Under the pieces are notes generated by a model that searched no databases, was not told the DNA's origin, and worked only from the letters and a program-made list of their open reading frames with translations. Positions 5,468-27,952 of a DNA stretch of 32,000 nucleotides are shown piece after piece (positions within the stretch are counted from its first letter, which is position 1; each line of letters opens with the position of its first letter). The translations under genes and the position numbers were made by a program. This DNA comes from an uncultured Calditrichaceae bacterium (lineage in GTDB: Bacteria > Zhuqueibacterota > Zhuqueibacteria > Oceanimicrobiales > Oceanimicrobiaceae). The stretch spans positions 50,805 through 82,804 of the forward strand of contig CAYVXE010000003.1 in the NCBI GenBank assembly GCA_964455375.1, written 5' to 3'.

Positions 5468-6025
5468 ATGTTTTGCAGTAAGAATCTTTTACAAAAGATC
5501 GTTTTTTGGAGCGTCTTACCACTTGTTTTTTGTGCCTGTGCGAGGAACGACACAGAAACAGAACCATTTGACTTTGATTTTGAAACGGAAGCCGATTTAA
5601 ATGCATTGACATGGGAGTGCCGGCAATTGTACAGCCTGTCTCCGGAACATGTGACGCATGGTAAATTCAGCCTAAAAGCAGAGCTTTATCCCGGTTTGTA
5701 CCCGGGGTTGAAAATTCGCCGGTTTGATCCGGACTGGTCGAGATATTCGGCGCTGCATTTTGATCTGTTTAATCCGCTTCCGGATTCCCTGCCGCTACAC
5801 ATTCGCATTGACGATCAACAGGAGCACCCTGAGTTTGAGAACCGTTTTAATTTGACGATCATGTTGCAACCGGGTGCCGGGCACTACATCCTGCCATTGA
5901 GCAAGGTGATAACCTCCGGCAGCAAACGGCCATTAAAGTTAAGCTCCATTGAGGCGGTTTACTTGTTTATCGTCCAGCCGAAGAAGGAAGTCGATCTATA
6001 TTTTGATTTTTTACACCTGGAGTAA
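5468..6025 (+). CDS. hypothetical secreted protein or lipoprotein
   Basis: The 185-aa ORF has an N-terminal signal-like segment ending VFCAC. I recognise no family. It lies 11 nt after the upstream gene. Confidence 0.5.
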   Translation: MFCSKNLLQKIVFWSVLPLVFCACARNDTETEPFDFDFETEADLNALTWECRQLYSLSPEHVTHGKFSLKAELYPGLYPGLKIRRFDPDWSRYSALHFDLFNPLPDSLPLHIRIDDQQEHPEFENRFNLTIMLQPGAGHYILPLSKVITSGSKRPLKLSSIEAVYLFIVQPKKEVDLYFDFLHLE

Positions 6026-7690: not shown

Positions 7691-7820
7691 CCCTAATCGT
7701 TAAAAAGAATTCCTGTATAAACGTAGAAATATTATCGACGTCCTTTCGGAGAAATTAACCAATTTGAACGTAATGAAAGATATGGCAGCTCTTGTGGGAA
7801 TCGGGGTTAAATTGCTCGAC

Positions 7821-8714
7821 TTAGAAATATATCACGCCCTGATTGTCGGCTGTGAAAATTCGACATACCGCTGGAATATTCAAGGCGCGTGCTTTTTGCT
7901 GCCAGGCGTCCTGCAAAGATGTTCCGTCATCTGCGGTAAAGGCCAGGATCGTTGATCCAGACCCGCTGACACAGACTCCGAGTGCTTTCGATTCGACGGC
8001 GACCCCTGCAAATGCGTCGTAGCCGGGGATGAGTTGTTTGCGATACGGTTGGTGTATTTTATCCTGCATGGCGATGGATAACGCTTCGTAATTTTTACTC
8101 ATGAACGCATGTGTGAGAAGAGCGCTGCGTTGAATGTTGAAAACCGCGTCTTTGTGGCTCACCGAACCGGGTAAAATCTGCCGTGCCGCTTTGGTGGAAA
8201 TGGTCACGTCGGGAATTAACGCGACCATCGTGAGACTGGGTTCTACGGGAAACGCTTTTGTCACCGGACGGCCTTTCTCAAGGCAATTTATCGTGAAGCC
8301 GCCAAACAGTGACGCCGCGGCATTTTCCGGATGGCCTTCAAGTTCGTTTGCCAGGGAAAGCAGGTACTCTTTTTTTGTGTTTAGGCCGGTGAGTTTTGCG
8401 GCACAAGCCAATCCTGCAATCGTTGCTGCGCCACTGCTTCCAAGACCACGGGACAAAGGAATCTCATTTTTGACTGTGATGTTCAAGGCAGGCAGCATTT
8501 GGTTGACATGAAGGAAAAACTTTTTTACTGCCAGATAAACAAGATTTGTTTCGTCGCGGGGAATTTCATCGGCGCCTTCACCGGAAACCTCGATGTGCAG
8601 GTCTGTGGGGCTGACGTCCATTTTTACGGTCAGGTACATCTGTAGCGCCAGACCGAAGGTGTCGAATCCAGAACCGAGATTCGATGTGGATGCGGGAACC
8701 CGGACGTTAACCAT
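7821..8714 (-). CDS. thrB: homoserine kinase
   Basis: The internal start MVNVRVPASTSNLGSGFDTFGLAL (CAT at 8712-8714) gives 297 aa. The GHMP-kinase motif PLSRGLGSSGA is present. The track ORF's 123-aa N-terminal extension overlaps pyrE and is rejected. Confidence 0.9.
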   Translation of the reverse strand: MVNVRVPASTSNLGSGFDTFGLALQMYLTVKMDVSPTDLHIEVSGEGADEIPRDETNLVYLAVKKFFLHVNQMLPALNITVKNEIPLSRGLGSSGAATIAGLACAAKLTGLNTKKEYLLSLANELEGHPENAAASLFGGFTINCLEKGRPVTKAFPVEPSLTMVALIPDVTISTKAARQILPGSVSHKDAVFNIQRSALLTHAFMSKNYEALSIAMQDKIHQPYRKQLIPGYDAFAGVAVESKALGVCVSGSGSTILAFTADDGTSLQDAWQQKARALNIPAVCRIFTADNQGVIYF

Positions 8715-9291
8715 TTTTTTGCAGGCCCCTGCTTCCCGGCTTGTGTGCCGGGCCGAGATTCTTAACGGCCGGATCATCCGGTTGGAATGTTTCAATCTGC
8801 AACTGCATGACCGAAAAAAAGTCAAGTCCGAACTGTGCGTTCCCCCCGCTGCGATCGACGATGCAGCCGACACCCAAGGGATTGGCGCCAAGTGAATGCA
8901 CCAGTTCGATGACTTCTTTGACCGAACCGCCGGTGGTAATGACGTCCTCCACCACGAGAATCGTTTCATCCTTTTGAATGGCAAAGTTTCTGCGTAAAGC
9001 CATACGCCCGTTTTCTCTTTCGGCAAAGATCGCGCGAACCCCCAGCGCGCGGGCAACTTCATGCGCAACGATGATGCCGCCAATTGCAGGCGCGATCACC
9101 GACTGAACGTTTCTGTTTTGATAATGATCGGCGATTTCAGAGCAGAGCTTTTCGGCATACTGCGGATGCTGCAGGACTTTGGCGCACTGGAAATATTGAG
9201 TGCTGTGCAATCCGGACGTTAAAATGAAATGGCCATTTAGCAGCGCACCGGTTTGTTGAAAAATAGTTAAAACGTCGTCGTTGGTCATCAT
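8707..9291 (-). CDS. pyrE: orotate phosphoribosyltransferase
   Basis: The 194-aa ORF has the PRPP-binding loop VVEDVITTGGS and an N-terminal GHFILTSGLHS. It overlaps the thrB start by 8 nt. Confidence 0.9.
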   Translation of the reverse strand: MMTNDDVLTIFQQTGALLNGHFILTSGLHSTQYFQCAKVLQHPQYAEKLCSEIADHYQNRNVQSVIAPAIGGIIVAHEVARALGVRAIFAERENGRMALRRNFAIQKDETILVVEDVITTGGSVKEVIELVHSLGANPLGVGCIVDRSGGNAQFGLDFFSVMQLQIETFQPDDPAVKNLGPAHKPGSRGLQKNG

Positions 9292-10121
9292 ATTTTTTTA
9301 TGTGAAAGTTTTGCTTTTCTAAATTGATTTATTTGTTCATTAAGTCTTTCTGCTTCCCTCCCAGCGACCTCAGCAAAGTCATTTTCGGAGGATTTGTAAA
9401 GGATGCCGCGGCTTGAATTGATAAACGCGCGCCCCCCATTCGGGTCGGTGCCGAACGCAACTGCTGTCTGCAAATTTCCCCCTTGTGCGCCAACCCCGGG
9501 AATGAGGAAAGGCAGACGAGGAGCTAAGGTGCGAATGGTTTTCATCTGTTGCGGGTGTGTGGCACCGGCAACCAGACCGCAATTCTCATGACGATTCCAT
9601 GCTAATACCGAACGAATCACGTGTGCATAAAGCGGTTCTCCGTCCACCGTGAGGTGTTGGATGTCTTTGGCGCCTGGATTTGATGTGACTCCGAGAATAA
9701 AAGCGCCCTTTTCGGAACGGCCAATAAAAGGAGCTACCGAGTCGCACCCCATGTACGGGTTCACAGTGACGGCGTCAAAATTCAGATTTTCAAAAATAGC
9801 CCGGGCATACATTTCAGAAGACGTTCCGATGTCGGCACGTTTTGCGTCGGCAATGGTTATGATATCTTCCGGCATGTGATCCATCAGGCGTTCAAGCACG
9901 TTCCAGCCTTTGACGCCCTCTGCTTCGAAAAATGCAAAATTGAGTTTAAATGCCGCAGCGACCTCTTTGGTTGCAGAAATGATTTCAGAACAGAAAACAA
10001 ATAATGCGTCCGGGTGGTTCTTTAGAGAGTCAGGAAACTTCCGACAGTCCGGATCCAATCCCACACAAAGTAAACTGTTCTTCTTTTTTATGATTGCATC
10101 TGTTTTTTCGTAAAAGGTCAT
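9288..10121 (-). CDS. pyrF: orotidine 5'-phosphate decarboxylase (type 2)
   Basis: The internal start MTFYEKTDAIIKKKNSLLCVGLDPD (CAT 10119-10121) gives 277 aa. Motifs include DAKRADIG and PGVGAQGG. The stop overlaps the pyrE start (ATGA). Confidence 0.9.
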   Translation of the reverse strand: MTFYEKTDAIIKKKNSLLCVGLDPDCRKFPDSLKNHPDALFVFCSEIISATKEVAAAFKLNFAFFEAEGVKGWNVLERLMDHMPEDIITIADAKRADIGTSSEMYARAIFENLNFDAVTVNPYMGCDSVAPFIGRSEKGAFILGVTSNPGAKDIQHLTVDGEPLYAHVIRSVLAWNRHENCGLVAGATHPQQMKTIRTLAPRLPFLIPGVGAQGGNLQTAVAFGTDPNGGRAFINSSRGILYKSSENDFAEVAGREAERLNEQINQFRKAKLSHKKI

Positions 10122-10156
10122 TGTATCTTTTTGCCGTAAAAACTCATTATTAAGAA

Positions 10157-11068
10157 TCAATGGCCGCCGGGGCCGTGATATGCTTCTTCTCCAGCTTCGA
10201 TTTTTACCGCCAGTCGATTTTGTGCCGGAGGCAACGGACAGGTGGCAAAGCGGGTAAAAGCGCATGGTGGATCATACGCTTTATTAAAGTCGATGGTAAG
10301 ATTGCCCAAGCTGTCCGGTTTGTCGATAACCAGGAATCGTCCACCGCCGTAAGTTTCTTCGCCATTGGTTTCATCACCGAAAATAACCCAGTAACCGCCA
10401 TCGTCGTCCAGAGTGTCGAGTTTGTAGGTTTTCCCGTGTATTTTAAATGCAAGCGCTCCGGGTGACGGTTCGTGGATTGTGGTCCCGAGAACGGTGGGAA
10501 TGGGGATGCTTTTAGGTGGATCATAGGGTTCAAATGTGGCCGTAAGCCGCCAGTTTTGATCCACCGGGAACCTTTCTACTCCGGGAAAATCGGATATGAG
10601 TGGGCTGTCGAGGTCGCGCAATCGTACGCCAAATGCATCACCGCGCTTGATAATGAACCATCTGAGGGAACCGAGTTTTAGAGTCGTTTTGTTGCTTTCC
10701 GTATCAGGGGTGAGCGTCAGGGTGGTCACGTTCTTTTCTTGATAATAAACGTTTACGCCGCTCCTGATTTTCACCGTAACGTGACCATTTTTGAGATAAA
10801 AAGTTCCTATCCGTTTGGGGGCTTGTCCCGGAAAAACAATATCATTCTGCGGACCGGAACCAAAGGTGTTTTTTCCTTGTTTTAGCCAAAACAACCCGAC
10901 CAGATTCAGCCACCCAGTATCACTTTTCAGATCAGCAATGCGTTTTTGATGCCAGCTTTCGATGTCAGCGAGATATTGCGTGTTATCCATTCTGGGCGAA
11001 GACTGTTGCTGGCATCCGATAATCGGCATTAGAAAAACAAGTGCGATGAACACGTTTAGCAAGCGCAA
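10157..11068 (-). CDS. DUF1684 domain-containing lipoprotein
   Basis: A lipobox is present (PIIGCQQ). DUF1684-like blocks are WLNLVGLFWL, GRFLVIDKPD and IDFNKAYDPPCAF...CPLPPAQNRL. Confidence 0.8.
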   Translation of the reverse strand: MRLLNVFIALVFLMPIIGCQQQSSPRMDNTQYLADIESWHQKRIADLKSDTGWLNLVGLFWLKQGKNTFGSGPQNDIVFPGQAPKRIGTFYLKNGHVTVKIRSGVNVYYQEKNVTTLTLTPDTESNKTTLKLGSLRWFIIKRGDAFGVRLRDLDSPLISDFPGVERFPVDQNWRLTATFEPYDPPKSIPIPTVLGTTIHEPSPGALAFKIHGKTYKLDTLDDDGGYWVIFGDETNGEETYGGGRFLVIDKPDSLGNLTIDFNKAYDPPCAFTRFATCPLPPAQNRLAVKIEAGEEAYHGPGGH

Positions 11069-11258
11069 AATTTTTCTCCAGTATAAATAGGTTTGTATTT
11101 AGCAATCAATTTAAAGATTTTGCAAGAAAGAATCAAAGAAAAATCGGCAGCTTTTTTCTTTACATAATAGAAGAGAATGCGTATTTTACATTTGTATGTG
11201 ACACACCGAGCAATCGTTGCTTACCTTAAAACCACTCAATATTGTTCCGGAGGGAAAA

Positions 11259-12563
11259 ATGAAGCTTAAATTGCATTGGCAGATTATTATCGGTTTAATT
11301 TTAGGTCTGATTTATGGAATCGTTGCTGCGATAAATGGTTGGGGTGCGTTTACGTCTGATTGGATCGCTCCTTTCGGGAAAATATTTATTAATTTACTAA
11401 AATTGATTGCCATTCCGCTCATTCTCGGATCACTAATTTCCGGTGTTGCTTCTCTCTCGGATTTAAAAAAGCTTTCCCGTATCGGCGGCAAGACCATTTT
11501 TATTTATATAACCACCACGGCTGTTTCCGTGACGATAGGGCTACTCATCGTAAATATGCTCAGACCAGGGAAAAGTGTTCCCCAGGATATGCGAGTAAAA
11601 CTACAGTCCGTCTACCAAACGGATGTGCAAACGAAGAAACAAGCTGCCCAGCAAGCTAAAGAACGCGGACCGTTACAACCCTTGGTGGATATAGTACCGT
11701 CCAATTTTGCCAACTCTGCTGCCAGTAATCGAAATATGCTGCAAGTTGTGTTTTTCGCAATTTTCATTGGTATTGGCATCATTCAAGTATCCGAAGAGAA
11801 GGCGAAACCGTTCCTGGGTTTTTTCAAGGGGTTAAATGACGTGATTATAAAAATGGTGGATAATATAATGCTTATGGCACCCATCGGTGTCTTTGCTCTC
11901 ATTGCCGATACCATCAACAGTGTTGCTAAAGATAATATTCACCAGGTCGGGGAGTTGTTAGGTGCGTTAGGCTACTACTGTTTGGCGGTTATTCTCGGCC
12001 TTCTTGTACAAACACTGGTCACCTATCCGATCATATTAAAGTTGTTCACGCCGATGCCGATTGTGAAATTTTTCAAAGGTATTTCACAAGCACAGATTTT
12101 AGCTTTCTCCACCAGTTCCAGTGGCGCGACACTTCCGGTTACAATGGAGAGTTGCGAGAAAAATCTCGGTGTTTCAGAAGAAGTGTCTGCTTTTGTTCTG
12201 CCGCTTGGTGCTACCATAAACATGGATGGCACCGCACTTTACCAGGCGGTTGCAGCGGTTTTTATCGCCCAGACACTCGGGCTTGATTTAGATATTGGCG
12301 CCCAACTGACGATCATTCTGACCGCGGTCTTAGCGTCCATTGGGACGGCTGCAGTGCCGGGAGCCGGTATTATCATGCTAGTGATTATTCTGGAAGCGAT
12401 TCATGTTCCCAGCGCCGGGATTGCTCTGATTTTAGGCGTCGACCGAATTCTGGATATGTGCCGAACGGTTACGAATATCACTGGAGATTCAACGGTTGCC
12501 GTAACTATCGCGGCCACAGAAGGCCAGTTGGCAGACGTAAAGGACGACAATTGGAAAAATTAA
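11259..12563 (+). CDS. dicarboxylate/amino acid:cation symporter (GltP/GltT/DctA family)
   Basis: Family motifs are SSSGATLPVTME, ATINMDGTALYQ and ITGD. The chosen start ATG 11259 (MKLKLHWQII) is preceded by GGAGGG. Confidence 0.9.
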   Translation: MKLKLHWQIIIGLILGLIYGIVAAINGWGAFTSDWIAPFGKIFINLLKLIAIPLILGSLISGVASLSDLKKLSRIGGKTIFIYITTTAVSVTIGLLIVNMLRPGKSVPQDMRVKLQSVYQTDVQTKKQAAQQAKERGPLQPLVDIVPSNFANSAASNRNMLQVVFFAIFIGIGIIQVSEEKAKPFLGFFKGLNDVIIKMVDNIMLMAPIGVFALIADTINSVAKDNIHQVGELLGALGYYCLAVILGLLVQTLVTYPIILKLFTPMPIVKFFKGISQAQILAFSTSSSGATLPVTMESCEKNLGVSEEVSAFVLPLGATINMDGTALYQAVAAVFIAQTLGLDLDIGAQLTIILTAVLASIGTAAVPGAGIIMLVIILEAIHVPSAGIALILGVDRILDMCRTVTNITGDSTVAVTIAATEGQLADVKDDNWKN

Positions 12564-14963: not shown

Positions 14964-16853
14964 ATGTGTTTGAGTAAATTAATGGCATGGACCATTTTAG
15001 CAACTGGAGTACTTAGCGGGTCTCCGGACGGTCTGGCGATTGCTCAAACAGGCGTTAACACCGAGCCTCTGCTGATGCAACCGCGGTATTCACGATTAAA
15101 TTTCAACCGGTCGCTTAATATTTACGAATGGTTTTACAGATTCAATTACCATAAACGCGTTGGCAAAAAACTGCAATTCCTTTTGCGAGAGAATTATCGT
15201 ACAACGTTACAGCAAACGAAAGCAAAAGATTTATGGAAGGACGATCAGAATTTTGTGGTGCAGTTCACGTATCCCTTTGCTACAAAGCTTATGTTTGAAG
15301 CATCGTTCGACTCCCGTGTTTTGTCGGATCCCTTGGCTGGCTTTGATAACAGTGTGACCTATTATTCCGGCACCACAAAAATACATTATACGCCGTTTAG
15401 GAATATAAGGCTATCACCGCAAATCAGTCGTCAGTGGCAAACGCAACTGGAGCAAAGCGACCAGGGGGTGGGGTATGGATTAGCCGCGGATGTTGATCGG
15501 TTCGATTTTAATGGCTACAGCACGAATTTGACATTTTTCGGAGAAAGGGATATATTCCCAAAACGGAGGAACGATGATATTAAATTTCGCTATACGATTA
15601 AGCGGCAGTTTTATGAATCCACAGCAGATACGCTGGCGATCATTTTTGACCGGTTACGCCGCGATAGTTTCGATGCGTTTACGACCGGTGTTTTTATACG
15701 CAACTTAATCCAGTCCCGAAGGGGTATCGAAAATAAACTTAGTTACAAGGTTGGCTCTTCTTCGGTTCTTTATGTTAAAAATGCGCTTTTATCAACATCG
15801 TTCAAAGTGAAGAATATAAAAGGCAGCTCCACAGATTTACAGAAGGAGGATGCAGGATTCGAGTCACGGCATTCGCTGAATTTGAAAATGAAAAAGTCAA
15901 AGTGGGTTGGAAACGTGGGTTGGAATTTTCGGCTTCGTACACGCGACGATAAACGTAAGGTCGACCGCACACCGGACCCCTTTGGCCGTTTCCCGACAGT
16001 GGGATTTGACTCGGAAGATAAGTTAGTAGAATTAAACACACACAGCGGATATGCGTTGAGCTCGGCGGATTCTTTAGGATTTTTTGCTGCCGTTTCAAAA
16101 TTTCAATACGATACGTCAGATACGACAAGTCCCAATGATCATGATTTTATTCGCTGGCAAGTATTCTTTTCACATGCACATACGTTTAACAAAACGTTAC
16201 ATCTGGTTTGGTCGGGAGGGGTATTCTTAAATCATTTTGTTTTTATTTCCGGGAGATTCAGCAGTGGTAATAATTGGGAGCGGATCTTTCAGTTGACTCC
16301 TGAAGTGGTTTTTCAGCCGCAACGGCAATGGTATTTCAAGCAGAAGTTTATCGTCCGGTCAAAATACCAAACGTATGATTTTGACGATGCTGCGACGAGC
16401 AATCGAAATATCGTCAGCCGTCAATTTATTGTATCTAATATCAGCCATTTCCCGTTTCCCGGGAATATGAGTGCGGAGTTGTCCGTTGATCTTGAGTTAG
16501 CAGAACAGGGACGTTTATTTTATAGTCGTTGGCGGCAGAATTTAGCTCTCTCCTGGCAAAATCGGGAAATTCGTTTTATGCTAAAAAAAAGATTACATTC
16601 CGGTATGAATATATCGGTTGGAGGAAGTTATTTCAACCAGAAACGCTGGCAACATAATCTCAATTCGAAGGGTAATTTCGACAAAAAATTGCAGACAATG
16701 CATACCAATTGGGGGCCGATTGTTCAGGTCAGGTATCAACCGCACCCTTCGATGGAAGTTTTGTTTTTAGGAAATATTCAGTTTGTTAATTCGTTTCGCA
16801 GACGCACAGAAACAATCAATAATTTCGACGTGAATGTCAATTGGTTTTTTTAA
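14964..16853 (+). CDS. hypothetical outer-membrane beta-barrel protein
   Basis: The 629-aa ORF has a signal peptide and alternating aromatic/polar beta-strand-like texture. It ends in an aromatic residue (...VNWFF). I recognise no family. Confidence 0.5.
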   Translation: MCLSKLMAWTILATGVLSGSPDGLAIAQTGVNTEPLLMQPRYSRLNFNRSLNIYEWFYRFNYHKRVGKKLQFLLRENYRTTLQQTKAKDLWKDDQNFVVQFTYPFATKLMFEASFDSRVLSDPLAGFDNSVTYYSGTTKIHYTPFRNIRLSPQISRQWQTQLEQSDQGVGYGLAADVDRFDFNGYSTNLTFFGERDIFPKRRNDDIKFRYTIKRQFYESTADTLAIIFDRLRRDSFDAFTTGVFIRNLIQSRRGIENKLSYKVGSSSVLYVKNALLSTSFKVKNIKGSSTDLQKEDAGFESRHSLNLKMKKSKWVGNVGWNFRLRTRDDKRKVDRTPDPFGRFPTVGFDSEDKLVELNTHSGYALSSADSLGFFAAVSKFQYDTSDTTSPNDHDFIRWQVFFSHAHTFNKTLHLVWSGGVFLNHFVFISGRFSSGNNWERIFQLTPEVVFQPQRQWYFKQKFIVRSKYQTYDFDDAATSNRNIVSRQFIVSNISHFPFPGNMSAELSVDLELAEQGRLFYSRWRQNLALSWQNREIRFMLKKRLHSGMNISVGGSYFNQKRWQHNLNSKGNFDKKLQTMHTNWGPIVQVRYQPHPSMEVLFLGNIQFVNSFRRRTETINNFDVNVNWFF

Positions 16854-16868
16854 AGTGAAAGGAATTGC

Positions 16869-17291
16869 GTGACTAAGAAAAGAAAAAACGAATTTGAAAT
16901 GACGATTCCCAGCAGTCTTGAACATATAGCGGCCGTAGAAAAATTATGTGAAAAAGCTGCCAACAAAATGAGTTTTAATGAAGAGGATAAGGATAGTCTC
17001 GCAATTGCGGTAACTGAGGCAGTGAATAATGCAATTTTACACGGCAACAAACAAAATGAAAATAAACACGTCACCATAAAATTTTTGTTTGAAGAAAGAA
17101 AACTTATTTGTAAAATTAGAGATGAAGGCGAGGGCTTTAACCCCCAAAATGTTGGTGATCCGTTAGCACCGGAAAATTTACTTAAAGAAAGCGGACGCGG
17201 GATTTTTATTTTATCATCATTAATGGATGATGTGAAATATGCTTTTTCAGAAAACGGCACCGAGATTATTTTGATTAAAGAAAAAAAGTAA
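16869..17291 (+). CDS. anti-sigma regulatory factor / Ser-Thr kinase (RsbW/SpoIIAB-like HATPase)
   Basis: The GTG start is preceded by AAAGGA. The N-box is EAVNNAILHGN, with G-boxes DEGEGF and GRGIFI. The ORF is 140 aa. Confidence 0.75.
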   Translation: MTKKRKNEFEMTIPSSLEHIAAVEKLCEKAANKMSFNEEDKDSLAIAVTEAVNNAILHGNKQNENKHVTIKFLFEERKLICKIRDEGEGFNPQNVGDPLAPENLLKESGRGIFILSSLMDDVKYAFSENGTEIILIKEKK

Positions 17292-17344
17292 AGAAGATTT
17301 TGAGTTGGCGATGTCTCAACTTTCAGAAGTTTTGACATCGGAGA

Positions 17345-17386
17345 CCGTTCTCGTTTTCGAAGATAAAAACGAAGCGGTTTTTTATT
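17345..17386 (+). terminator. intrinsic terminator, in or just before the thiC leader
   Basis: CCGTTCTCGTTTT (17345-17357) pairs with AAAACGAAGCGG (17366-17377): 12 bp with one bulged C and a 7-nt loop. A TTTTTTATT tract follows immediately. The element ends about 20 nt before the thiC Shine-Dalgarno AAGGAGG. Confidence 0.7.
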
Positions 17387-17404
17387 CATACTAAGGAGGA
17401 TTGA

Positions 17405-18823
<1,419 letters not shown>

Positions 18824-19641: not shown

Positions 19642-19772
19642 ATGAGCATTTCCTAATTAACGTTGCCCAAAACGCTACAGAACGACAGAACTCCATAATA
19701 AGCAAGGATTTCGTCAGATAAAAAAGAAAGGGGATGTAGCCAATGCAAAGGATGCGCTTTTTCAAAGGTCAA

Positions 19773-20273
19773 ATGAAGACGCTGCTTTTCAAATATGGCA
19801 TAATCGCGCTGCCGCTTTTGGCCGGGATTTGCCTGGGAGGCTGTGCGGTTAACGAAACAAAGCCAAATGATGAAAATCGCGCGCCAGAAAAACCGGTGGC
19901 TCAAGTCAACTCTGTGCAAGTCAGCGGAGAGCCAAATGCTTACCAGTTCTCAGTGGGAATCATGAGCCCTGACAAAGGCTGTGAACAATACGCGGACTGG
20001 TGGGAAGTTCTCTCAGAAAATGGAACCTTGATTTATCGGCGAATTTTAGCCCATAGCCATGTTAATGAGCAGCCATTTGTGCGTTCCGGGCAACCGGTGC
20101 GAATACAAGCCAATGACGTTGTTTACATTCGTGGTCACATGCATCCGGGAGGATACGGCGGCAACGTTTTTACAGGGACGGTGCAAGATGGATTCCGGGA
20201 AGTTACGGTCAGCGCCGACTTTGCGGCGGGCGTAGAAAAAGAGCCCCCCCAACCCACTGATTGTGCCTTTTGA
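19773..20273 (+). CDS. hypothetical lipoprotein
   Basis: The likely start MKTLLFKYGIIALPLLAGICLGGC has an LGGC lipobox. The track start at 19743 is the alternative. I recognise no family. The protein is His/Cys-containing (HSHVNE, GHMHPGGYGG). Confidence 0.5.
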   Translation: MKTLLFKYGIIALPLLAGICLGGCAVNETKPNDENRAPEKPVAQVNSVQVSGEPNAYQFSVGIMSPDKGCEQYADWWEVLSENGTLIYRRILAHSHVNEQPFVRSGQPVRIQANDVVYIRGHMHPGGYGGNVFTGTVQDGFREVTVSADFAAGVEKEPPQPTDCAF

Positions 20274-20282
20274 TGAACAAAT

Positions 20283-22544
20283 CTATTTTGAACCCCCTCC
20301 CAGCAAATTTAACATCTCCCGAGCATCCGTCGTTGGGGCATTACAGGCAAAATTCTTACAAACATACGCCGTTGCTTTGCCGTCGACGGACTTTTGAAAT
20401 TCCGTAAAAGCTGCGATGTTTGTTATTGGTGGCTTTTCTTTTTCACCGGGGCGGAACAACACAACTTTGTTGGGAAGATAGTTCGTTTGCAATGTCTTCA
20501 GCATCTCCTGCGTATCTTTGTCTGACAGGGTGCCGGCAATGACGACTTCGTAGGTTGGGCCGAAGGCAAAAAGCAATGCAGATATGAGTTGTGTACTACT
20601 AATGGGTGACTGCGTCAGTTGGGTCGAGAATGCTTTGCCAATGGCCACGGTTTTTTCTTCCAGGTCGGTGCTGCCGGTCATTCTGCTTAGACGCAGGAGG
20701 TTCATCGCTGCTACCGAATTTCCCGAAGGGATGGCGCCGTCGTAAATTTCTTTATTTCTAACCAACAGATCTCCCTGACTATTTGTTGCAAAAAAGAATC
20801 CGCCATTTTTTGTATCCCAAAAATCCTTCAACATAATATCGTTGAGGTAAATGGCCCGCTGCAGATAGTCTATATCAAACGTCGCTTCGTAGAGATTGAG
20901 CATTCCCCAGACCATAAAGGCGTAATCGTCCGAGTGTGCCGGTAAAGCTGCTTCTCCCTGACGGTAGCGTTTCAGGAGTTTCCCGTCTTTATCCCGCACG
21001 GAATCCCAGATAAAATCAGCCGCTTTACGCGCCGCCGTGGCGTACGTCGGTTCATTTAAAACGGCAGCGCCTTCTGCGAGAGCAGCGATCATCATGCCGT
21101 TCCAGTCGGTGAGAACTTTGTCGTCTTTAAAGGGATGCACGCGTTTTTCGCGCACGGAAAAAAGTTTTTTTCTGGCTTTTTCCCACCGTTGCTTTAATTG
21201 TTCTTCTGAAACAGACTGCTCTTTTGCCAGCTCGCCCCAGGTTTTTTTTAAATACAGAATGCTGCCGCCAGTTTTCTGTTGTGTCGCCTGATCAAGAAAG
21301 TTTCCACCGGCTTCGACGTTGAACAGTTTAATGACGAAGTCACCTTCTTCCTTGCCGAGAACATCTGTAATTTTCTCCGGCGTCCATAAATAGAAAAGTC
21401 CCTCTTCTCCCTCACTGTCGGCGTCTTCTGCGGAATAAAACCCACCTTCCGGTGAGGTCATATCGCGCAAAACATAGGTGAAAATGTCACGGGCGATCTC
21501 GGCATATTCCTGTTTGCCGGTTGCCTGGAAGGCCTCGACATAAGCCATGGCCAGACCGGCCTGGTCGTAGAGCATTTTTTCGAAATGCGGCAAAAACCAC
21601 CGCTGGTCTGTGGAGTAGCGATGGAACCCGAAACCAACCTGATCGAACATGCCGCCAAGATGCATCTGCTGCAGCGTTTTTTCCACCATCTCCAGCGCCT
21701 TTGGGCTTTTGTATTGCTGCCAATAACGCAGCAGAAAAGTCAGATTGTGTGGTGAAGGAAACTTTGGCGCCTGACCAAAGCCGCCGTAGGTGGGATCGAA
21801 GCGTTGACTCAGTTGTTGAAAAGCCGTTTGCAAGACCTGTTTATCCAGTGCGCTGCCCGGTTGGCCGCCTGTGTTTTTTTGCAGAAAATCGACGACGCGG
21901 TCTGCGCTTGTAAGAATTTTTTGCCGGTCTGTTTTCCATGATTTGTCGATACCCGGGATAAGATCCAGCATGCCGACTCTCTGGAAGCGACTCGTTTTCG
22001 GGAAATAGGTGCCGGCATAAAACGGCTTTTTATCGGGCGTCATGATGATCGTCAATGGCCAGCCGCCGCTGCCGGTCATAGCGGTACAGACCTGCATATA
22101 GATTTGATCGATATCCGGGCGTTCTTCCCGGTCGACTTTAATGCAGACGAATGTTTTATTCAACAATGCGGCAACCGTGGAGTCTTCAAAAGATTCATGT
22201 TCCATGACGTGGCACCAGTGGCAGGTGGAGTAACCGATGGAAAGAAAAATCGGTTTGTCTTCTCTCCGCGCTTTTGCAAATGCTTCTTCTCCCCAGGGAT
22301 ACCAGTCCACCGGGTTTCTGGCATGTTGTAAGAGATAGGGACTTTTTTGAAAAATGAGTCGGTTAAACTCGGGTCCGCCGTCCTTCGGCAAACGGGCAAT
22401 TTCTGCTGCGGACGGCAATCCTACCCGGCCGTCCTTTGTATGTTCTTGTGACATAGGTTTTCCATGGTATCGTTGAATAGTTATGGCCAATATTAAAACA
22501 GCTAAAATTCCAAACAGGAAAATAAGTTTGATATATTTTTTCAT
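20283..22544 (-). CDS. thioredoxin domain-containing protein (DUF255/YyaL family with a six-hairpin glycosidase-like C-terminal domain)
   Basis: The 753-aa ORF carries [36 protein letters not shown] and GGWPL, all typical of DUF255. An N-terminal signal or anchor is present. Confidence 0.9.
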
Positions 22545-22798
22545 GATTTACAATAGTCGGATATGATTGTTTTGAAATTAATGGATGCGATATTAGTAAT
22601 GAACGTTCAGGGTTAGAGATTTGTTCCGAATATAAAAAAAGCTTTTAAAAATGCAAAGAAAAGCGGGCTCTGCACGATTATGCTAAGTTTTTGTGAAAGT
22701 GTGTCGGCATAAATGTTTAAAAATTGCAACAACAATTTAGAATTAGTCACACCATCCGATAAGATGAAGTAAATTCATTAACCAAATCTAAACAAAAG

Positions 22799-24607
22799 AT
22801 GACGAAAATGGTGAAATCTAAAGATGTTGTTTATGCCCTGTGCCTTTTACTCTTACCTGCCGCCGGCATTTCGCAGATTTATGAACCGCAAAAACCGCTT
22901 TCTGAAATTGAAAGTTCCATGGAGGCGAATTTAACCTGGAATCTGCAAAGCGCACTGTTGCTGTATTACCCGGAGAACAAGTTTGTTGTTAAGGCGGATG
23001 TACGATTACAAAAAGTAAAGCCCAAACGGGTGCTACCAAAGTTACCGGACGCACTTTTGAGCAGAAGCGTAAACAATTTGCCCGGCTTACCCTACGTTCC
23101 CCTGGATTTTGGAGAAGCAACACCGCCCCAACAAAAACGTGACAATTTAAGAAACTATGTTCGGGAAAACAATTTTCAAGTGGCGAGTATCCGGGTGAAT
23201 GTGCTGGTTGATGCGAGCCTGCGTGAAAGTGACTGGGCATTCATTCGTCGCTATTCGGCCCTTGTGGCTGATTTGGAACCGACCCGGGGCGATCAGATTC
23301 GCATTGAGCGGTTAACGTTTCCGGATAAAGCGACTTTTTTTGCAGCAAAGCAGAAGCCTGAGGTGCAACAGCCGGCTAAAACGAAACCACCGCAACAGGC
23401 GCAGATCATCCCGTCTGATTTCGATTGGCGTCCATACGCGTTTGCCGGAGGCATTGCTCTTCTGTTGATCATCGCGTTCTTTCTTGGCATTCGGGCAATT
23501 ACAAAATCCATAAAGAAATCCATGAGTAAAAATGATGCGGTTGCTGCAAAAGATCAATCGCCGCTTCCGGTATCCCGGGCTGCTGTGGCAAAACACAGGC
23601 AGGAAACAGATCAAACACGGGGAACGTCTGAAACGCCCAATTACCATCAGTTGAGATCCGAAATGATGGATACTATCGTCGGCACGCCGTCTTCCGCCGC
23701 CGCGGTTTTTAACCAATGGATTGAAGAGAGAGACGAAGCCGGGACAAAAGATGTGGCCGCCCTGCTTACGGGAGTGTCAAAACCACTGGCCGAACTCCTG
23801 ACACCGTATTTTGGCAAGGAGACCGCCGGCGCCGTGAAAAGTAAAATGGCGGAGATGGAAAAGGATGTACCGGAAAGCGAGGTCGATGAATTAATTAAAT
23901 TGTTTAATGGCGATTTGCGTAAACTGGTGGTGAAGGAAAGCAAAGACCCCAAAGAAAATGACGCCCTTGCCTTTTTGAACCAGATGAGCGATAACCAGTT
24001 GGAACATTTGCTGAAGCCGTTGAAGACCGGCATTAAAGCCATCGTTTTGGCACAGATGCGTTCTAATCGTGCGGCAAAGTTTCTAAGCAAAATGGATGCG
24101 GATGAGAAAAAAGAAGTGTTGGTGTCGATGGGCAATATTGAACATCTTCCGTTGGATGTTTATCAACACATTGCCCGGCAACTGGCAGCACGTGCGAACA
24201 AACTGGAAAAAATGCGCTACGTGCGCGCCAATGGCGTGGACGCGGTGGTGAAAGTTATGGAGCATCTCGATGAAAAGACGCAGGACGACCTGTTGAACCA
24301 CCTGCAAACCCAGGACGTAAAACTCGCACAGAAAGTCCATCAGAAATTTATGACGTTTAATCAGTTGCTGGACATGCCGGAGGAAGAAATTCAGAAAGTC
24401 GCACTGGAGGTGGATCGCGAGATCTTAGCAAAATCGCTCGTTACAGTGGATGAAGAAACCGTGGTCAGAATCGTCTCGGCGCTGCCGGAAAAGTTGCAGG
24501 AACTGGTGACAGCAAGTCTTGAATCTAACCACGACATACCTGAAAATGAAGTGGCACAGGCGCGACGGGCATTGATGCGATCGTTGCGAGAAAGCCAAAA
24601 ACAATAA
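22799..24607 (+). CDS. membrane-anchored FliF(C-terminal portion)-FliG fusion-like protein
   Basis: The 602-aa ORF has, in order: an N-terminal signal/TM; a periplasmic segment of about 180 aa ending in a FliF-like VASIRVNVLVD...RGDQIRIERLTF; and a TM at about aa 213-233. It continues with a FliF-C-like helix AAAVFNQWIEE, then FliG N/M/C-like sequence to the end. The last part includes FMTFNQLLDMPEEEIQKVALEVDREILAKSL, compared with E. coli FliG MFVFENLVDVDDRSIQRLLQEVDSESLLIALKG. Confidence 0.7.
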   Translation: MTKMVKSKDVVYALCLLLLPAAGISQIYEPQKPLSEIESSMEANLTWNLQSALLLYYPENKFVVKADVRLQKVKPKRVLPKLPDALLSRSVNNLPGLPYVPLDFGEATPPQQKRDNLRNYVRENNFQVASIRVNVLVDASLRESDWAFIRRYSALVADLEPTRGDQIRIERLTFPDKATFFAAKQKPEVQQPAKTKPPQQAQIIPSDFDWRPYAFAGGIALLLIIAFFLGIRAITKSIKKSMSKNDAVAAKDQSPLPVSRAAVAKHRQETDQTRGTSETPNYHQLRSEMMDTIVGTPSSAAAVFNQWIEERDEAGTKDVAALLTGVSKPLAELLTPYFGKETAGAVKSKMAEMEKDVPESEVDELIKLFNGDLRKLVVKESKDPKENDALAFLNQMSDNQLEHLLKPLKTGIKAIVLAQMRSNRAAKFLSKMDADEKKEVLVSMGNIEHLPLDVYQHIARQLAARANKLEKMRYVRANGVDAVVKVMEHLDEKTQDDLLNHLQTQDVKLAQKVHQKFMTFNQLLDMPEEEIQKVALEVDREILAKSLVTVDEETVVRIVSALPEKLQELVTASLESNHDIPENEVAQARRALMRSLRESQKQ

Positions 24608-24630: not shown

Positions 24631-25752
24631 ATGAGAAAACAAATAATAATATTAGCAGCGTTTGTTTTGTTGACAGGAGCATCATGGTCACCGGTCAATG
24701 CCCAGCCCGGCGACGATGATATTCTCAAGCTTGCAGAAGAAATTTTCCAGCAAATTCCGCGGGATTTGTCGGAAATCGATCCGCAACTCGGCAGAATAGC
24801 AGTTTACCGGTTGGAAACCGACAATAAATTCATTTCGGCATCTCTGCAGGAACACATCAAAAGCCGGTTGTTGGAAATTATGAGCCAACTGGATCAGCCG
24901 AGGGTCGTTTCCCTGCCGAAGTTAAACACGTTGCAGATTTCCTCTACGGACACAACGTTCTCGATTTTGAACTCCCTGCCGACGCCGGAAGACGTGTGGC
25001 GGGTAGGTAAAAAGCTGCGTGTGGATGCATTTCTTGAAGGCAATTTGACCTACATTCCGCAAAAAGCACTCCTTGTTGATTTGCGTTTAAACCGCATCGG
25101 GACCAATGAAGTTCTCTGGGCAAAGTCATATTCCGCGTATGAGAAAAATTTGAAGTTGCCGAAAGTAAATCCTTTGCGAAAAAGTATCAACGCCGGCTTA
25201 GAAATTTTTAATGTGGACGTGACCGTTCCCACGGACTCGCTCATCAGTTCTGATTTCAGCAACCGACTTATTCAGTATTCAGCTTATGTGGGCGTTTACC
25301 AGTACGTCACGCCCAAAAGCAGATTGCGCTATGAATTGCGTCTGGGTCTGTCTTATTTGTCAGATGGCATTCAGCTTAACAAAGGGTCGTTCGCAAAGAA
25401 TTCTTTTTACTATGATTCCGGCAGTACATTTCAGTTTGGCCGGCCCTCATCTTTAAATATTCGTTCCCTTCTTACCTCTGCCATTGCGGAAAACAAACAG
25501 AACCCGGCCGGTGACTGGTTGTCGGTTTATCTCTCCATTACCCGCTATTTTGCTGTGAATATGCCCGATATAACCGGATTTGGAATTGGTTTTCGCAGTG
25601 ACATCAATACCCATTTTTCTGTTTCTGCCGGAATTGCCGTCGTTGTGGGGAAGGAATTTAGTTCCGGTCGTATTTTACCGACCAATGAACGCGCCCGCAT
25701 AAAAGTTCACGGTCTGCACTACGATATTCAATTTTTACAATTTACATTTTAA
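24631..25752 (+). CDS. outer-membrane protein: periplasmic alpha/beta domain (CsgG/LpoB/FlgO-like pattern) plus predicted beta-barrel
   Basis: A type-I signal peptide is present (VNA/QP). The N-terminal half reads RIAVYRLETDNK...RVVS...LRVDAFLEGNLTY...LVDLRLNRIGTNEVLWAKSYS. The C-terminal half has beta-strand texture and ends ...LQFTF. The family call is at pattern level only. Confidence 0.5.
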   Translation: MRKQIIILAAFVLLTGASWSPVNAQPGDDDILKLAEEIFQQIPRDLSEIDPQLGRIAVYRLETDNKFISASLQEHIKSRLLEIMSQLDQPRVVSLPKLNTLQISSTDTTFSILNSLPTPEDVWRVGKKLRVDAFLEGNLTYIPQKALLVDLRLNRIGTNEVLWAKSYSAYEKNLKLPKVNPLRKSINAGLEIFNVDVTVPTDSLISSDFSNRLIQYSAYVGVYQYVTPKSRLRYELRLGLSYLSDGIQLNKGSFAKNSFYYDSGSTFQFGRPSSLNIRSLLTSAIAENKQNPAGDWLSVYLSITRYFAVNMPDITGFGIGFRSDINTHFSVSAGIAVVVGKEFSSGRILPTNERARIKVHGLHYDIQFLQFTF

Positions 25753-25790: not shown

Positions 25791-26438
25791 ATGAAACAAA
25801 CAATTGTAATGATAACCGCAAAATCAGCGATTTTTGCTTTTTTGATGACCATGGCCAGCGGTTTCGGTCTTTGGAGTTGTGCAAATCAATCCAAATCATT
25901 GCAGCGTCAGGTAACCGAAACGTCTACTGCGGATTCATCGGCAGTCGGTAAATTAAAAAAGAAGACCTATCTGAAGGTTAAATTTCATCAGAACGACACA
26001 GATGTGGAGCTGGTTTTAGACCCGGAAGCCCAAAATCTGGCCCTGGATTTTGTCAGAAGCCCGGATGGCCAATTGCAGGTTTTTGACGGCGATTCGTCAT
26101 TGATAAAGAAGGAAAAGGATCCTGAGCTGACGAACGGACTTTTGAAGAAACTGCAGAACAGGAAAGACGGTCTGGACAGGGAGGACCTCACAGACGAAAT
26201 CGTTCAGGATATCAATGAAGCACAGCGGTTATTTTATCAGAAAGAATACATACAGGCTCTAAAGGTCCTGCAGGCCTCTCTGGAAAAGAGAAAGTCAGCC
26301 ACCGCGTATGCGCTTGGCGGCTCTATTTACTACGTCAACGGCGATATTGAGGAGGCTGTCAATGCCTGGGAAAATGCACTAAAAATTAATCCGGATCTGC
26401 AGGATGTAAAAGAATTGGTGGATCGGTATAAACAATAG
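25791..26438 (+). CDS. TPR-containing lipoprotein
   Basis: The signal ends in the lipobox GLWSC. The middle is charged. The C-terminal region is TPR-like (YIQALKVLQASLEK...AYALGGSIYYVNGDIEEAVNAWENALKINPD). Confidence 0.65.
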   Translation: MKQTIVMITAKSAIFAFLMTMASGFGLWSCANQSKSLQRQVTETSTADSSAVGKLKKKTYLKVKFHQNDTDVELVLDPEAQNLALDFVRSPDGQLQVFDGDSSLIKKEKDPELTNGLLKKLQNRKDGLDREDLTDEIVQDINEAQRLFYQKEYIQALKVLQASLEKRKSATAYALGGSIYYVNGDIEEAVNAWENALKINPDLQDVKELVDRYKQ

Positions 26439-26460: not shown

Positions 26461-27282
26461 GTGTTAACATTATTAGGATTTGTTGTAGGCGTTGCTCTTG
26501 TTGGTTATGGCATTTCAACCGGAAAAGCTCCTCCGGAAATATTTTTAAACTGGCAGGGACTGGCCATTGTCTGCGGTGGTTCCATCGCTGCGATTGTGGT
26601 CTCTTACCCCATTCCTGAAATCGTGCGTGCCTTTACATCGTATTTTATCATTTTTCGGTCCGGCGCGCATAAATATATCAAAGCCATTGATAAAATGGTA
26701 TCCTGCATTCGCACCTATCAGCGGGAGGGCCAGGAAAAACTCTTACAGATTCTGGCATCCGGGACAAAGCTGTGGATATTTTACGACGGTGTGCAGATGA
26801 AGTCCGTGGGCTATTCTCAGGAAGAAACGAAGGAGATTCTCGAAGACCAGATTCGCTGGCAAATGACCCGGGAAATGAAGCAGCATCATCTGTTTTCGAC
26901 GATGGCAAAAGTTGCACCGGCATTTGGTATGATCGGCACGCTCATCGGGCTCATCAATATGCTTATTACGTTGCAGAGTCATCCGGGCAACGTCGGCAGC
27001 GGCCTTGCCATTGCTTTGACAACGACCTTTTACGGTTTGATTTTGGCGAACATCATCTTCGCACCAATTGCCGAAAAATTAAAAGAGCGCGCAGAAAATA
27101 ATTTTCTCATCGAGACCATGCAACTGGAAGCTGTGATGATGCTTTATGAAGATCGCAACTATGTGTATGCCCGCGACAAATTAGCCGCGTATTTGAATGC
27201 AGCTAATCGTAAAAAAGTGCAGAAGGTTGCTGGCAAAATGGATTTTTCAAAAAACAAAAAACGGTTTAAAAAAGTTGCTTAA
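26461..27282 (+). CDS. motA: MotA/PomA-type stator proton-channel protein
   Basis: The GTG start is preceded by AAAGGA. The topology is 4-TM: two TMs, a cytoplasmic loop of about 100 aa, then two TMs. The MotA_ExbB core APAFGMIGTLIGLINML...GLAIALTTTFYGLILANIIFAPIAEKL is present. Confidence 0.85.
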   Translation: MLTLLGFVVGVALVGYGISTGKAPPEIFLNWQGLAIVCGGSIAAIVVSYPIPEIVRAFTSYFIIFRSGAHKYIKAIDKMVSCIRTYQREGQEKLLQILASGTKLWIFYDGVQMKSVGYSQEETKEILEDQIRWQMTREMKQHHLFSTMAKVAPAFGMIGTLIGLINMLITLQSHPGNVGSGLAIALTTTFYGLILANIIFAPIAEKLKERAENNFLIETMQLEAVMMLYEDRNYVYARDKLAAYLNAANRKKVQKVAGKMDFSKNKKRFKKVA

Positions 27283-27316: not shown

Positions 27317-27952
27317 ATGGAAATCAAACTGCACAACAATGTTTTTTCCAGAGAGGATGAGTCACAGTCCTGGCTTTTGTCTTACAGTGATATGGTGACA
27401 CTTTTGCTGGCATTTTTTGTTTTGTTTTTTGCCATTTCACAAGTGGATCAGGCTAAATTTGAATCCATTATGCAGTATTTTAACCGTGAAAATACCATGC
27501 CGCTGCAGGTTTTGGAACAAAAATTTAAAGCATTGGTGCAGCAACATCATCTTGAAAAAAGTGTGGATGTGCAGTTGACGCCGGACGGATTGCTGGTTAA
27601 TTTTCAGGACGAGATTCTTTTTGAATCCGGCAAAGCAGAACTGAACACAAAATCTTTTCCGATTTTAACCTCCATGGCAGGCCTTTTGAAAGACGAGGCC
27701 GTGGCAAAACGCCATGTACAGGTTCAAGGCCATACCGACAGTGTGCCGTTGGCAAAAAATTCTTTATATCCTTCAAATTGGGAATTGTCCGGTGCGCGTT
27801 CGGCGCGGGTTATTCGCTATTTAATTCGGGAAGGATTGAGTCCGGCGCGTTTTGTATCTGTGGGCTATGCTGACACCCGGCTGCGAGTTGCGGAAGCGGA
27901 AAACAACCGTGGTCTGCAAGCCAATCGCAGGGTTAGTTTTCTCATTAAATAA
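27317..27952 (+). CDS. motB: MotB-type stator protein with OmpA-like peptidoglycan-binding domain
   Basis: The N-terminal WLLSYSDMVTLLLAFFVLFF is the MotB TM carrying the conserved Asp. The C-terminus is OmpA-like (GHTDSVP, NWELSGARSARVIRYL, NRRVSFLI). Confidence 0.85.
   Translation: MEIKLHNNVFSREDESQSWLLSYSDMVTLLLAFFVLFFAISQVDQAKFESIMQYFNRENTMPLQVLEQKFKALVQQHHLEKSVDVQLTPDGLLVNFQDEILFESGKAELNTKSFPILTSMAGLLKDEAVAKRHVQVQGHTDSVPLAKNSLYPSNWELSGARSARVIRYLIREGLSPARFVSVGYADTRLRVAEAENNRGLQANRRVSFLIK

Follow-up and report, generated by a model that had tools for sequence, protein, structure and literature searches.

To our knowledge, neither FliG nor a flagellar-type MotAB stator has been described except as part of a flagellum. 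A natural FliF-FliG fusion has been described in the Chlamydiaceae (Bergeron 2016, PMC4768692), the sole natural precedent found in the literature searched, and engineered FliF-FliG fusions form rings (PMC6079021, PMC10941966, PMC11481574), as does the isolated ring-building motif 3 (RBM3) of Salmonella FliF (PMC8786727). A recent survey noted rotor proteins in species without filaments and asked about another function for them (bioRxiv 10.1101/2024.12.05.626484). The window analyzed here, a stretch of 32,000 nucleotides of DNA from an uncultured Calditrichaceae bacterium (contig CAYVXE010000003.1, positions 50,805 to 82,804 of the forward strand), carries a five-gene operon headed by a single open reading frame (ORF) at 22799 to 24607 on the plus strand, which encodes a FliF-FliG fusion protein of 602 amino acids. 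An initial annotation, made from the sequence alone, had proposed a natural fusion with a shortened periplasmic part, a divergent torque helix, and its own stator nearby; it did not mention the Chlamydiaceae precedent. The ORF is confirmed as a genuine, conserved natural fusion that joins one RBM3-type motif to a complete FliG, comprising the N, M, and C domains. The proposed shortening of the periplasmic part and divergence of the torque helix were likewise upheld.

The FliF and FliG parts were recognized with profiles built from 39 close homologues of the fusion (A1) and from 54 diverse family members (A2), with Pfam models, and with an AlphaFold2 (AF2) model of the protein. Pfam FliG_C matched the fusion with 56.3 bits (cutoff, 23.3; E = 4.6e-15), and FliG_N and FliG_M (34.2 bits) likewise scored above their cutoffs. 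Against PDB sequences, the A1 profile matched T. maritima FliG-MC at E = 1.9e-18, and positions 310 to 600 of the A2 profile aligned with residues 5 to 321 of E. coli FliG (113 bits). Positions 130 to 308 of A2 aligned with residues 374 to 551 of E. coli FliF (33 bits), which comprise the C-terminal half of RBM3 with its RGD (residues 374 to 440), the second transmembrane helix (TM2), and the FliG-binding helix, and positions 26 to 85 gave a weak match to FliF residues 221 to 280, the first helix and strand of RBM3. Pfam YscJ_FliF_C remained below its cutoff of 23.8 bits on residues 120 to 174 of the fusion (14.4 bits) and exceeded it in a distant family member, P0150 (24.4 bits). When the AF2 model was compared with the PDB by Foldseek, FliG ranked first, with 310 to 318 aligned columns on full-length chains and E values of about 1e-7, and many FliF RBM3/S-ring chains were also returned at a probability of 1.0 and a target TM-score (TMt) of 0.5 to 0.57. 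The scores do not reach the equivalog level for FliG (71.4 bits versus 226.7 for TIGR00207 and 34.8 versus 550 for PRK05686). RBM1 and RBM2, the SctJ-homology region, which in FliF houses the export gate, are absent, with no Pfam YscJ_FliF match and about 180 periplasmic residues, equal to one RBM. Because the FliF and FliG alignments are collinear, the protein can be read as the part of FliF that runs from RBM3 to the C terminus, joined directly to FliG beginning with the first residues of the latter; the joint coincides with the boundary between fliF and fliG, which in E. coli are neighbors with an 8-nt overlap. The alternative named in the initial annotation, that residues 290 to 602 belong to MgtE_N, was ruled out, as that family gave a weaker match overlapping those to FliG_C and to the full N-M-C alignment, both of which are FliG specific.

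The ORF contains no internal stop, and across 23600 to 23800 both other frames carry stops. The deposited protein (P0001) has 599 amino acids, a length that would fit an ATG three codons downstream (22808 instead of 22799). The hydrophobic segments, RBM-like end, linker, and other landmarks listed in the initial annotation were found where it had placed them. Hydropathy gives two hydrophobic segments only, around residues 9 to 28 and 210 to 239. The first belongs to a signal peptide or membrane anchor (residues 1 to 26; 22799 to 22876) ending in a family-conserved A-Q, of which Q26 is nearly invariant; cleavage of the segment is predicted. It is followed by the periplasmic RBM3-like domain (residues 34 to 174; 22898 to 23320) in the order alpha, beta, insert, beta, alpha, RGD, beta, with AF2 helices at 34 to 56 and 143 to 156, strands at 62 to 72, 126 to 138, and 166 to 172, and the RBM-like end VASIRVNV...RGD...LTF at residues 128 to 174. 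The insert (residues 73 to 125; 23015 to 23173) lies between beta1 and beta2, which is the position of the FliF beta-collar insert according to the HMM (hidden Markov model) alignment and the known layout of FliF, and is shortened to about 45 amino acids from about 93 in E. coli FliF. It carries a family-invariant LPGLP (residues 94 to 98), in which P95 is invariant and G96 nearly so among the 54 diverse members. A periplasmic linker (residues 175 to 212; 23321 to 23434), variable and disordered, with its P/Q-rich stretch proper at residues 185 to 202, leads to the transmembrane (TM) helix YAFAGGIALLLIIAFFLGI (residues 213 to 231; 23435 to 23491), which lies within an AF2 helix at 211 to 245 and aligns with the TM2 region of FliF.

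On the cytoplasmic side, the equivalent of the C-terminal FliG-binding helices of FliF occupies residues 279 to 311 (23633 to 23731) and includes SSAAAVFNQWIEE at residues 298 to 310. Its two AF2 helices (279 to 295 and 297 to 311) have predicted local distance difference test (pLDDT) values above 80, and the region aligns by HMM with DPRVVALVIRQWINND of E. coli FliF (residues 535 to 551); FliG binding itself is predicted. The FliG N-domain equivalent spans residues 312 to 385 (23732 to 23953), recognized by Foldseek and by the A2 profile, with FliG-N-like sequence starting at residue 315. It is followed by the middle-domain equivalent at residues 386 to 479 (23954 to 24235), which contains an FliG-M-like stretch at 412 to 451 and has N-G in place of the Gly-Gly linker, and by the C-domain equivalent at residues 480 to 602 (24236 to 24604), in which MFxF reads FMTF. 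The torque-helix equivalent, LPEKLQELVTASLESNHDIP, is found at residues 562 to 581 (24482 to 24541). The AF2 monomer model (mean pLDDT, 74.9) has the layout periplasmic alpha-beta, a disordered stretch (residues 73 to 116), beta-alpha-beta, the TM helix, a disordered cytoplasmic linker, and an all-helical part from residue 279 to 601.

The same fusion is widespread. Assemblies from NCBI, ENA, JGI, and Logan yielded 41 full-length homologues of 559 to 615 amino acids with 41 to 100% identity, and an HMM search of 1.84 billion representatives returned 173 sequences at E < 1e-30, mostly 560 to 730 amino acids long and matching from end to end. Named members come from candidate division KSB1, Calditrichaeota, Fibrobacterota/Fibrobacterales, Elusimicrobiota, and one "Deltaproteobacteria" metagenome-assembled genome (MAG); a repeat database search with the A2 alignment returned the same close clade only and added no taxa. 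Within the close clade, the columns of the full-length alignment average 57% identity, and every domain holds dozens of invariant residues. In public databases, they are annotated as "hypothetical," as "FliG," or as "FliG C-terminal domain-containing protein." An apparent stand-alone "split" version of 331 amino acids (P0176) proved to be a fragment, as its cluster holds a 589-amino-acid member. In two distant members, the RBM3-like domain is preceded by a LysM peptidoglycan-binding domain (P0188, residues 69 to 111; P0138, residues 52 to 94).

The fusion gene is followed on the same strand, with gaps of 22 to 38 nt in the window, by genes for an outer-membrane barrel protein, a tetratricopeptide repeat (TPR) lipoprotein, MotA, and MotB. 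This five-gene order recurs in every cassette locus with enough downstream sequence, including distant loci from Fibrobacterota (L027), Elusimicrobiota (L033), and two further lineages (L026 and L028). Long contigs with the cassette include ERZ25074695 ctg340502 (1.36 Mb), a 768-kb contig encoding P0048, JAJDAF010000010 (330 kb), and QQUE01000014 (210 kb). Clustering of the flanking ORFs gave no conserved sixth gene, and the flanking genes differ everywhere. The operon contains no export, rod, hook, filament, or switch genes, and no FliM, FliN, or other flagellar gene was found in the window or adjoining the cassette in the loci examined. One outlier, L032 (ENA ERZ28563687 scaffold_427, 6456 to 10597; "Deltaproteobacteria bacterium RIFOXYA12_FULL_61_11"), has no adjacent MotA or MotB and instead has a TPR gene directly upstream of the fusion, a gene for a 217-amino-acid protein downstream, and a PilZ-domain gene about 1.2 kb upstream.

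The stator nearby was confirmed as MotA (26461 to 27282; 273 amino acids), of the short-loop PomA/MotP type, and MotB (27317 to 27952; 211 amino acids). The MotA profile matches solved flagellar MotA and PomA over the full length at E values from 1e-55 to 7e-48, and the channel prolines P173 and P222 of E. coli MotA are present as the invariant P153 and P202; equivalog scores are not reached (about 131 bits for NCBIfam MotP/PomA versus cutoffs of 341 to 394). MotB carries the channel aspartate D25 (D32 in E. coli), a plug (Pfam MotB_plug, 64 bits), and an OmpA-like peptidoglycan-binding domain (58.6 bits), both matches being above cutoff. The adjacent genes encode a four-TM MotA with a cytoplasmic torque domain and a MotB with the Asp, plug, and OmpA domain, the features of a flagellar stator.

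The second gene, always in that place in the operon, encodes a 373-amino-acid outer-membrane protein (24631 to 25752, plus strand) with a signal peptide, a TolB-N/LpoB-like periplasmic alpha/beta domain, a beta-barrel of about 10 strands, and a C-terminal Phe. Its AF2 model (pLDDT, 82) matched by Foldseek the LpoB C-domain (TMt, 0.59 to 0.62) and the TolB N-domain fold and, for the barrel, OprG, OmpA, OmpX, Ail, and FadL. The protein has no Pfam match and its profile no PDB sequence match; Pfam FlgO was matched by 1 of 29 homologues (E = 1.3e-3), and it is possible that the domain is FlgO-like. One Calditrichaceae MAG (L020) has this gene in two ORFs, 1405 to 1788 and 1814 to 2548, reflecting a frameshift or pseudogene or an assembly error. 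The third gene (25791 to 26438, plus strand) encodes a lipoprotein of 215 amino acids with a conserved lipobox Cys, a small conserved beta-rich domain, and C-terminal TPR repeats (Pfam TPR_2 and TPR_11), and its profile gave generic TPR matches only in the PDB.

The residues through which FliG meets the stator were compared across 170 family members aligned to E. coli FliG. A hand alignment in the initial annotation, which had placed K264, R281, D288, D289, and R297 on V, K, A, S, and P, was reproduced by the HMM alignment as V548, K565, A572, S573, and P581. In the family, the R281 position is basic in 161 of 170 members (R in 107 and K in 54), the D288 position is mostly S or A, the D289 position is E in 58 and S in 57 (acidic, Glu or Asp, in 65 of 170), the K264 position is hydrophobic, and the R297 position is S, P, or T; within the 39-sequence close clade, the D288 and D289 equivalents are invariably A and S. 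The earlier statement that the electrostatic interface is mostly absent is overstated, as the R281 equivalent is retained and the helix is still highly charged (E564, K565, E568, and E575). In MotA, R88 corresponds to the retained R90 of E. coli, and L95 takes the place of E98, a position that is nonacidic throughout the close clade. Compensatory charges in the cognate MotA, which the initial annotation had raised, did not emerge cleanly from 21 paired sequences. The pattern is one of codivergence and not of a swap: in this clade, the FliG D288/D289 and MotA E98 equivalents are lost, and their usual partners, MotA R88 and FliG K565, are retained. Because the Elusimicrobiota cassette L033 keeps both canonical pairs (FliG R281, D288, and E289, with K and E at the two MotA positions), the interface looks ancestral and its divergence in the KSB1/Calditrichota clade is probably derived, a lead that comes from these 21 pairs. 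The FliM-binding EHPQ motif (E125/H126/P127/Q128) reads L/K/T/G in the fusion, with L and K invariant in the close clade; E125, unlike HPQ, is kept in 116 of the 170 wider-family members. Loss of EHPQ fits the absence of FliM and FliN genes from the operon.

A sigma-28 (FliA)-like promoter motif, TTTAG with a 14-nt spacer and TCCGATAA, lies upstream of the fusion at 22736 to 22763 on the plus strand. It resembles the sigma-28 consensus, TAAAG-N14-GCCGATAA, and is presumably a promoter. A scan of both strands of 658 kb with the pattern T[TCA][AT]AG-N13-15-nCCGAT placed it 60 to 390 nt upstream of the fusion in 16 loci of the KSB1/Calditrichota clade (the window, L001, L003, L004, L006-L016, and L034), in the form T[TC][AT]AG, 14 to 15 nt, nCCGAT[GA]A, and gave just three other matches. 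Two further matches to the pattern in the window, at 12037 on the plus strand within the coding region of the ORF at 11217 to 12563 and at 16585 on the minus strand, are probably due to chance. The cassettes of Fibrobacterota, Elusimicrobiota, L026, and L028 lack the motif; upstream of L027 and L033, sigma-70-like boxes can be seen by our reading.

Flagella are encoded by Caldithrix and by KSB1 clades II and IV (PMC5317091, PMC9012183). Counts of KEGG orthology (KO) assignments in KSB1 MAGs list two clade III genomes (GCA_002085355.1 and GCA_014729735.1) with one fliG and one motA and none of fliF, fliM, flhA, flhB, and fliC, whereas in many clade IV MAGs fliG and motA are each counted twice and fliF and fliM once (PMC9012183 Table S7). 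These patterns are indirect evidence for the cassette alone in some genomes and beside a flagellum in others, and KO tables may count cassette genes as fliG and motA; flagellar motility may be overcalled in MAG studies of this kind. Many KSB1 MAGs with doubled fliG and motA KOs also have two fliA (PMC9012183 Table S7), and the second FliA paralogue may go with the cassette. Fusion proteins P0009 and P0010 were traced to GCA_022562085.1 and GCA_022574215.1 and gave no link to the genomes of the KO table; because the cassette loci are unlinked to those MAGs, the occurrence of the cassette without a flagellum remains an indirect argument.

Together, these features point to a self-contained machine of rotor and stator, derived from the flagellum, that would use ion flow to act on the outer envelope, a reading to which we assign a probability of about 0.6. 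By homology, the RBM3 domains would oligomerize into an inner-membrane ring that displays one FliG per subunit on its cytoplasmic face. Peptidoglycan-anchored stators of the MotA5B2 type would conduct ions by way of the MotB Asp and the MotA prolines and push on the FliG C-domain helix, turning or torquing the ring. Rotation is not expected to be switched by the chemotaxis route, because there is neither a FliM-binding motif nor a FliM or FliN gene. With RBM1, RBM2, export gate, rod, hook, and filament all missing, the output would be handed on within the periplasm to the barrel protein and the TPR lipoprotein of the operon, plausibly by way of the invariant LPGLP loop on its long P/Q-rich tether; surface movement and outer-membrane or cargo dynamics are candidate roles. 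A more specific proposal is advanced tentatively, at somewhat less than even odds: that the cassette forms a stand-alone nonflagellar rotary organelle, an FliF-RBM3/FliG ring driven by the MotAB of the same operon and linked to an outer-membrane complex, present in flagellum-free bacteria as well as alongside flagella. Such an organelle would either represent exaptation of the motor core or, with lower likelihood, be a survivor related to the rotor-stator module that models of flagellar origins place before the flagellum.

Several observations weigh against a self-contained machine of this kind. In some distant members, the supposed rotor bears a LysM domain on its periplasmic side, which is hard to square with free rotation. 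In the clade, four of the five canonical torque-helix charges are replaced and MotA is without an E98 equivalent, so an E. coli-like rotor-stator contact cannot be assumed. All members of the family come from uncultured MAGs, and the AF2 model of the fusion is a monomer with a low-confidence insert, which leaves formation of a ring, one of about 34 subunits in the case of FliF, as a prediction; the output and the partner contacts are conjectural. The evidence for cassettes without flagella consists of KO counts in incomplete MAGs unlinked to the loci studied, and the sigma-28-type promoter could equally mean joint work with a flagellum.

That last possibility is a set of rotor and stator parts that serves a true flagellum as an accessory or an alternative, such as an extra torque ring or stator scaffold at the basal body comparable to the Vibrio H-ring/T-ring (FlgO, MotX, and MotY). 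It would account for the sigma-28-like motif, for the paired fliG and motA KOs of many flagellated KSB1 MAGs, and for the weak FlgO match of the outer-membrane protein, and a TPR gene upstream of motAB recalls MotX/PflB. We nevertheless judge it distinctly improbable. The cassette never adjoins other flagellar genes in the loci examined; since it has no RBM1, RBM2, or FliM-binding motif, it cannot stand in for the FliF or FliG of a flagellum; and two KSB1 MAGs appear, indirectly, to have fliG and motA with no other flagellar genes. A nonrotary force transducer of the Tol-Pal or TonB kind is unlikely but is the alternative we take most seriously. MotAB would in that case pull on or remodel a static, possibly peptidoglycan-tethered FliF/FliG assembly, through which energy would reach the barrel protein and the TPR lipoprotein and serve envelope integrity, division, or transport. 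The composition of the cassette is Tol-Pal-like, with a 5:2-type motor, an inner-membrane-spanning partner, a TolB-N-like domain, an OmpA-like peptidoglycan binder, and a TPR protein resembling CpoB, and both the LysM domains of some members and the loss of canonical rotor-stator charges in the clade agree with a static assembly. The stator itself is flagellar in type, not TolQR or ExbBD, as judged from the solved flagellar MotA match at 1e-55 and from cassette matches of 26.8 bits to TolQ (cutoff, 221), 18 bits to ExbB (cutoff, 206), and E = 0.47 to ExbD, and its partner is a complete FliG, in which the R281 equivalent is conserved, mounted on a ring-building motif known only for rings.

Two simpler explanations would remove the machine altogether. 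A missing stop or frameshift could join two separate genes, which has some prior plausibility given that fliF and fliG adjoin in E. coli. The fused architecture recurs at full length in 41 close homologues and about 170 distant representatives from independent assemblies, which excludes such an artifact for practical purposes, and a simple read-through would not explain why the N-terminal two-fifths of FliF, consisting of the first TM helix, RBM1, and RBM2, is absent. The cassette might also be what is left of a lost flagellum, functionless and in decay, as rotor proteins without filaments, found in about 11% of nonmotile species, are sometimes taken to be (bioRxiv 10.1101/2024.12.05.626484). 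Decay is very hard to reconcile with intact ORFs, a five-gene order strictly kept among members with names from four phyla, 57% mean column identity in the close clade with invariant residues throughout, and a conserved promoter motif; conservation of this extent effectively excludes both explanations, and we regard the remnant as highly improbable.

A divergent gene at 20283 to 22544 on the minus strand encodes a 753-amino-acid protein with DUF255 thioredoxin-like and glycosyl-hydrolase-9-like parts and shares a 254-nt intergenic region with the cassette promoter. ORFs of 176 to 629 amino acids at 5468 to 6025 (+), 6062 to 7690 (-), 14964 to 16853 (+), 16850 to 17518 (-), and 19743 to 20273 (+) had no Pfam match at E <= 1e-5. 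A generic scan for sigma-70 promoters and terminators gave nothing above chance, and Rfam and tRNA scans of the window returned nothing. In the Calditrichaeota CLD2 MAG (L001), the cassette is closely preceded by a CsgG-family gene (6249 to 7175), which is not conserved at the other loci.

If correct, the stand-alone rotary organelle proposed above would be the first known nonflagellar machine to use an FliG-type rotor; no description of the cassette was found in the literature on FliG and MotAB outside flagella, on FliF-FliG fusions, or on these phyla. Retention of the torque-generating core alone, with the addition of outer-membrane partners, in several phyla would demonstrate that the motor core can be separated from the rest and has been reused in evolution, and this bears on models in which the flagellum was assembled from simpler parts. 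For structural and single-molecule studies, the cassette would offer a minimal rotor-stator system of five proteins, and it would also be a natural experiment in rewired rotor-stator electrostatics. The annotation of "FliG" or "MotA" in MAGs of KSB1, Calditrichota, Fibrobacterota, or Elusimicrobiota would, by itself, be no sign of flagellar motility.

Among ion-driven systems, TolQR-TolA/TolB/Pal/CpoB, ExbBD-TonB, GldLM, AglRQS, and ZorAB resemble the cassette in combining a MotA/B-family unit with envelope partners that reach the outer membrane, and the operon also encodes a TolB-N-like domain and a TPR protein; the cassette differs from these 5:2 motors in its flagellar-type stator and FliG-type partner. 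Zorya and other listed defense systems were rejected, as PADLOC gave generic ZorB-type matches to MotB only, with no match for ZorA or for the other three cassette genes and no Zorya effector genes. The Vibrio H-ring/T-ring (FlgO, FlgP, FlgT, MotX, and MotY) has in common with the cassette a possibly FlgO-like outer-membrane-associated protein and a repeat (TPR/Sel1-like) protein beside the stator, whereas the Pfam FlgO match is weak and confined to a single homologue and the cassette protein is an integral beta-barrel.

The Chlamydiaceae fusion is similar in joining a shortened FliF periplasmic region and a TM helix to FliG-like sequence where there is no complete flagellum, but it has about 330 amino acids, an RBM2-like region and a second RBM-like region, and only the FliG middle domain is recognized; it was linked to the injectisome (PMC4768692). 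Compared by described architecture, the present family has about 600 amino acids, RBM3 only, and a complete FliG, and it travels with MotAB. The engineered Salmonella and Vibrio fusions are joined end to start at the same junction and assemble rings (PMC6079021, PMC10941966, PMC11481574), but they are laboratory constructs with full-length FliF inside complete flagella. The closest likeness is to the flagellar MS-ring/C-ring core with MotA/MotB or PomA/PomB, which has the same order of RBM3, TM2, FliG-binding helices, and FliG N, M, and C domains, the same type of stator with plug, OmpA domain, channel Asp, and prolines, and a conserved R281. The flagellar core is made from two polypeptides and the cassette from one, which has no first TM helix, RBM1, or RBM2, a collar insert about half as long, no EHPQ, and, in the clade, replacements of D288, D289, K264, and R297. 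In place of the FliM/FliN, export, rod, hook, and filament genes that accompany the flagellar core, the cassette carries an outer-membrane barrel and a TPR lipoprotein.

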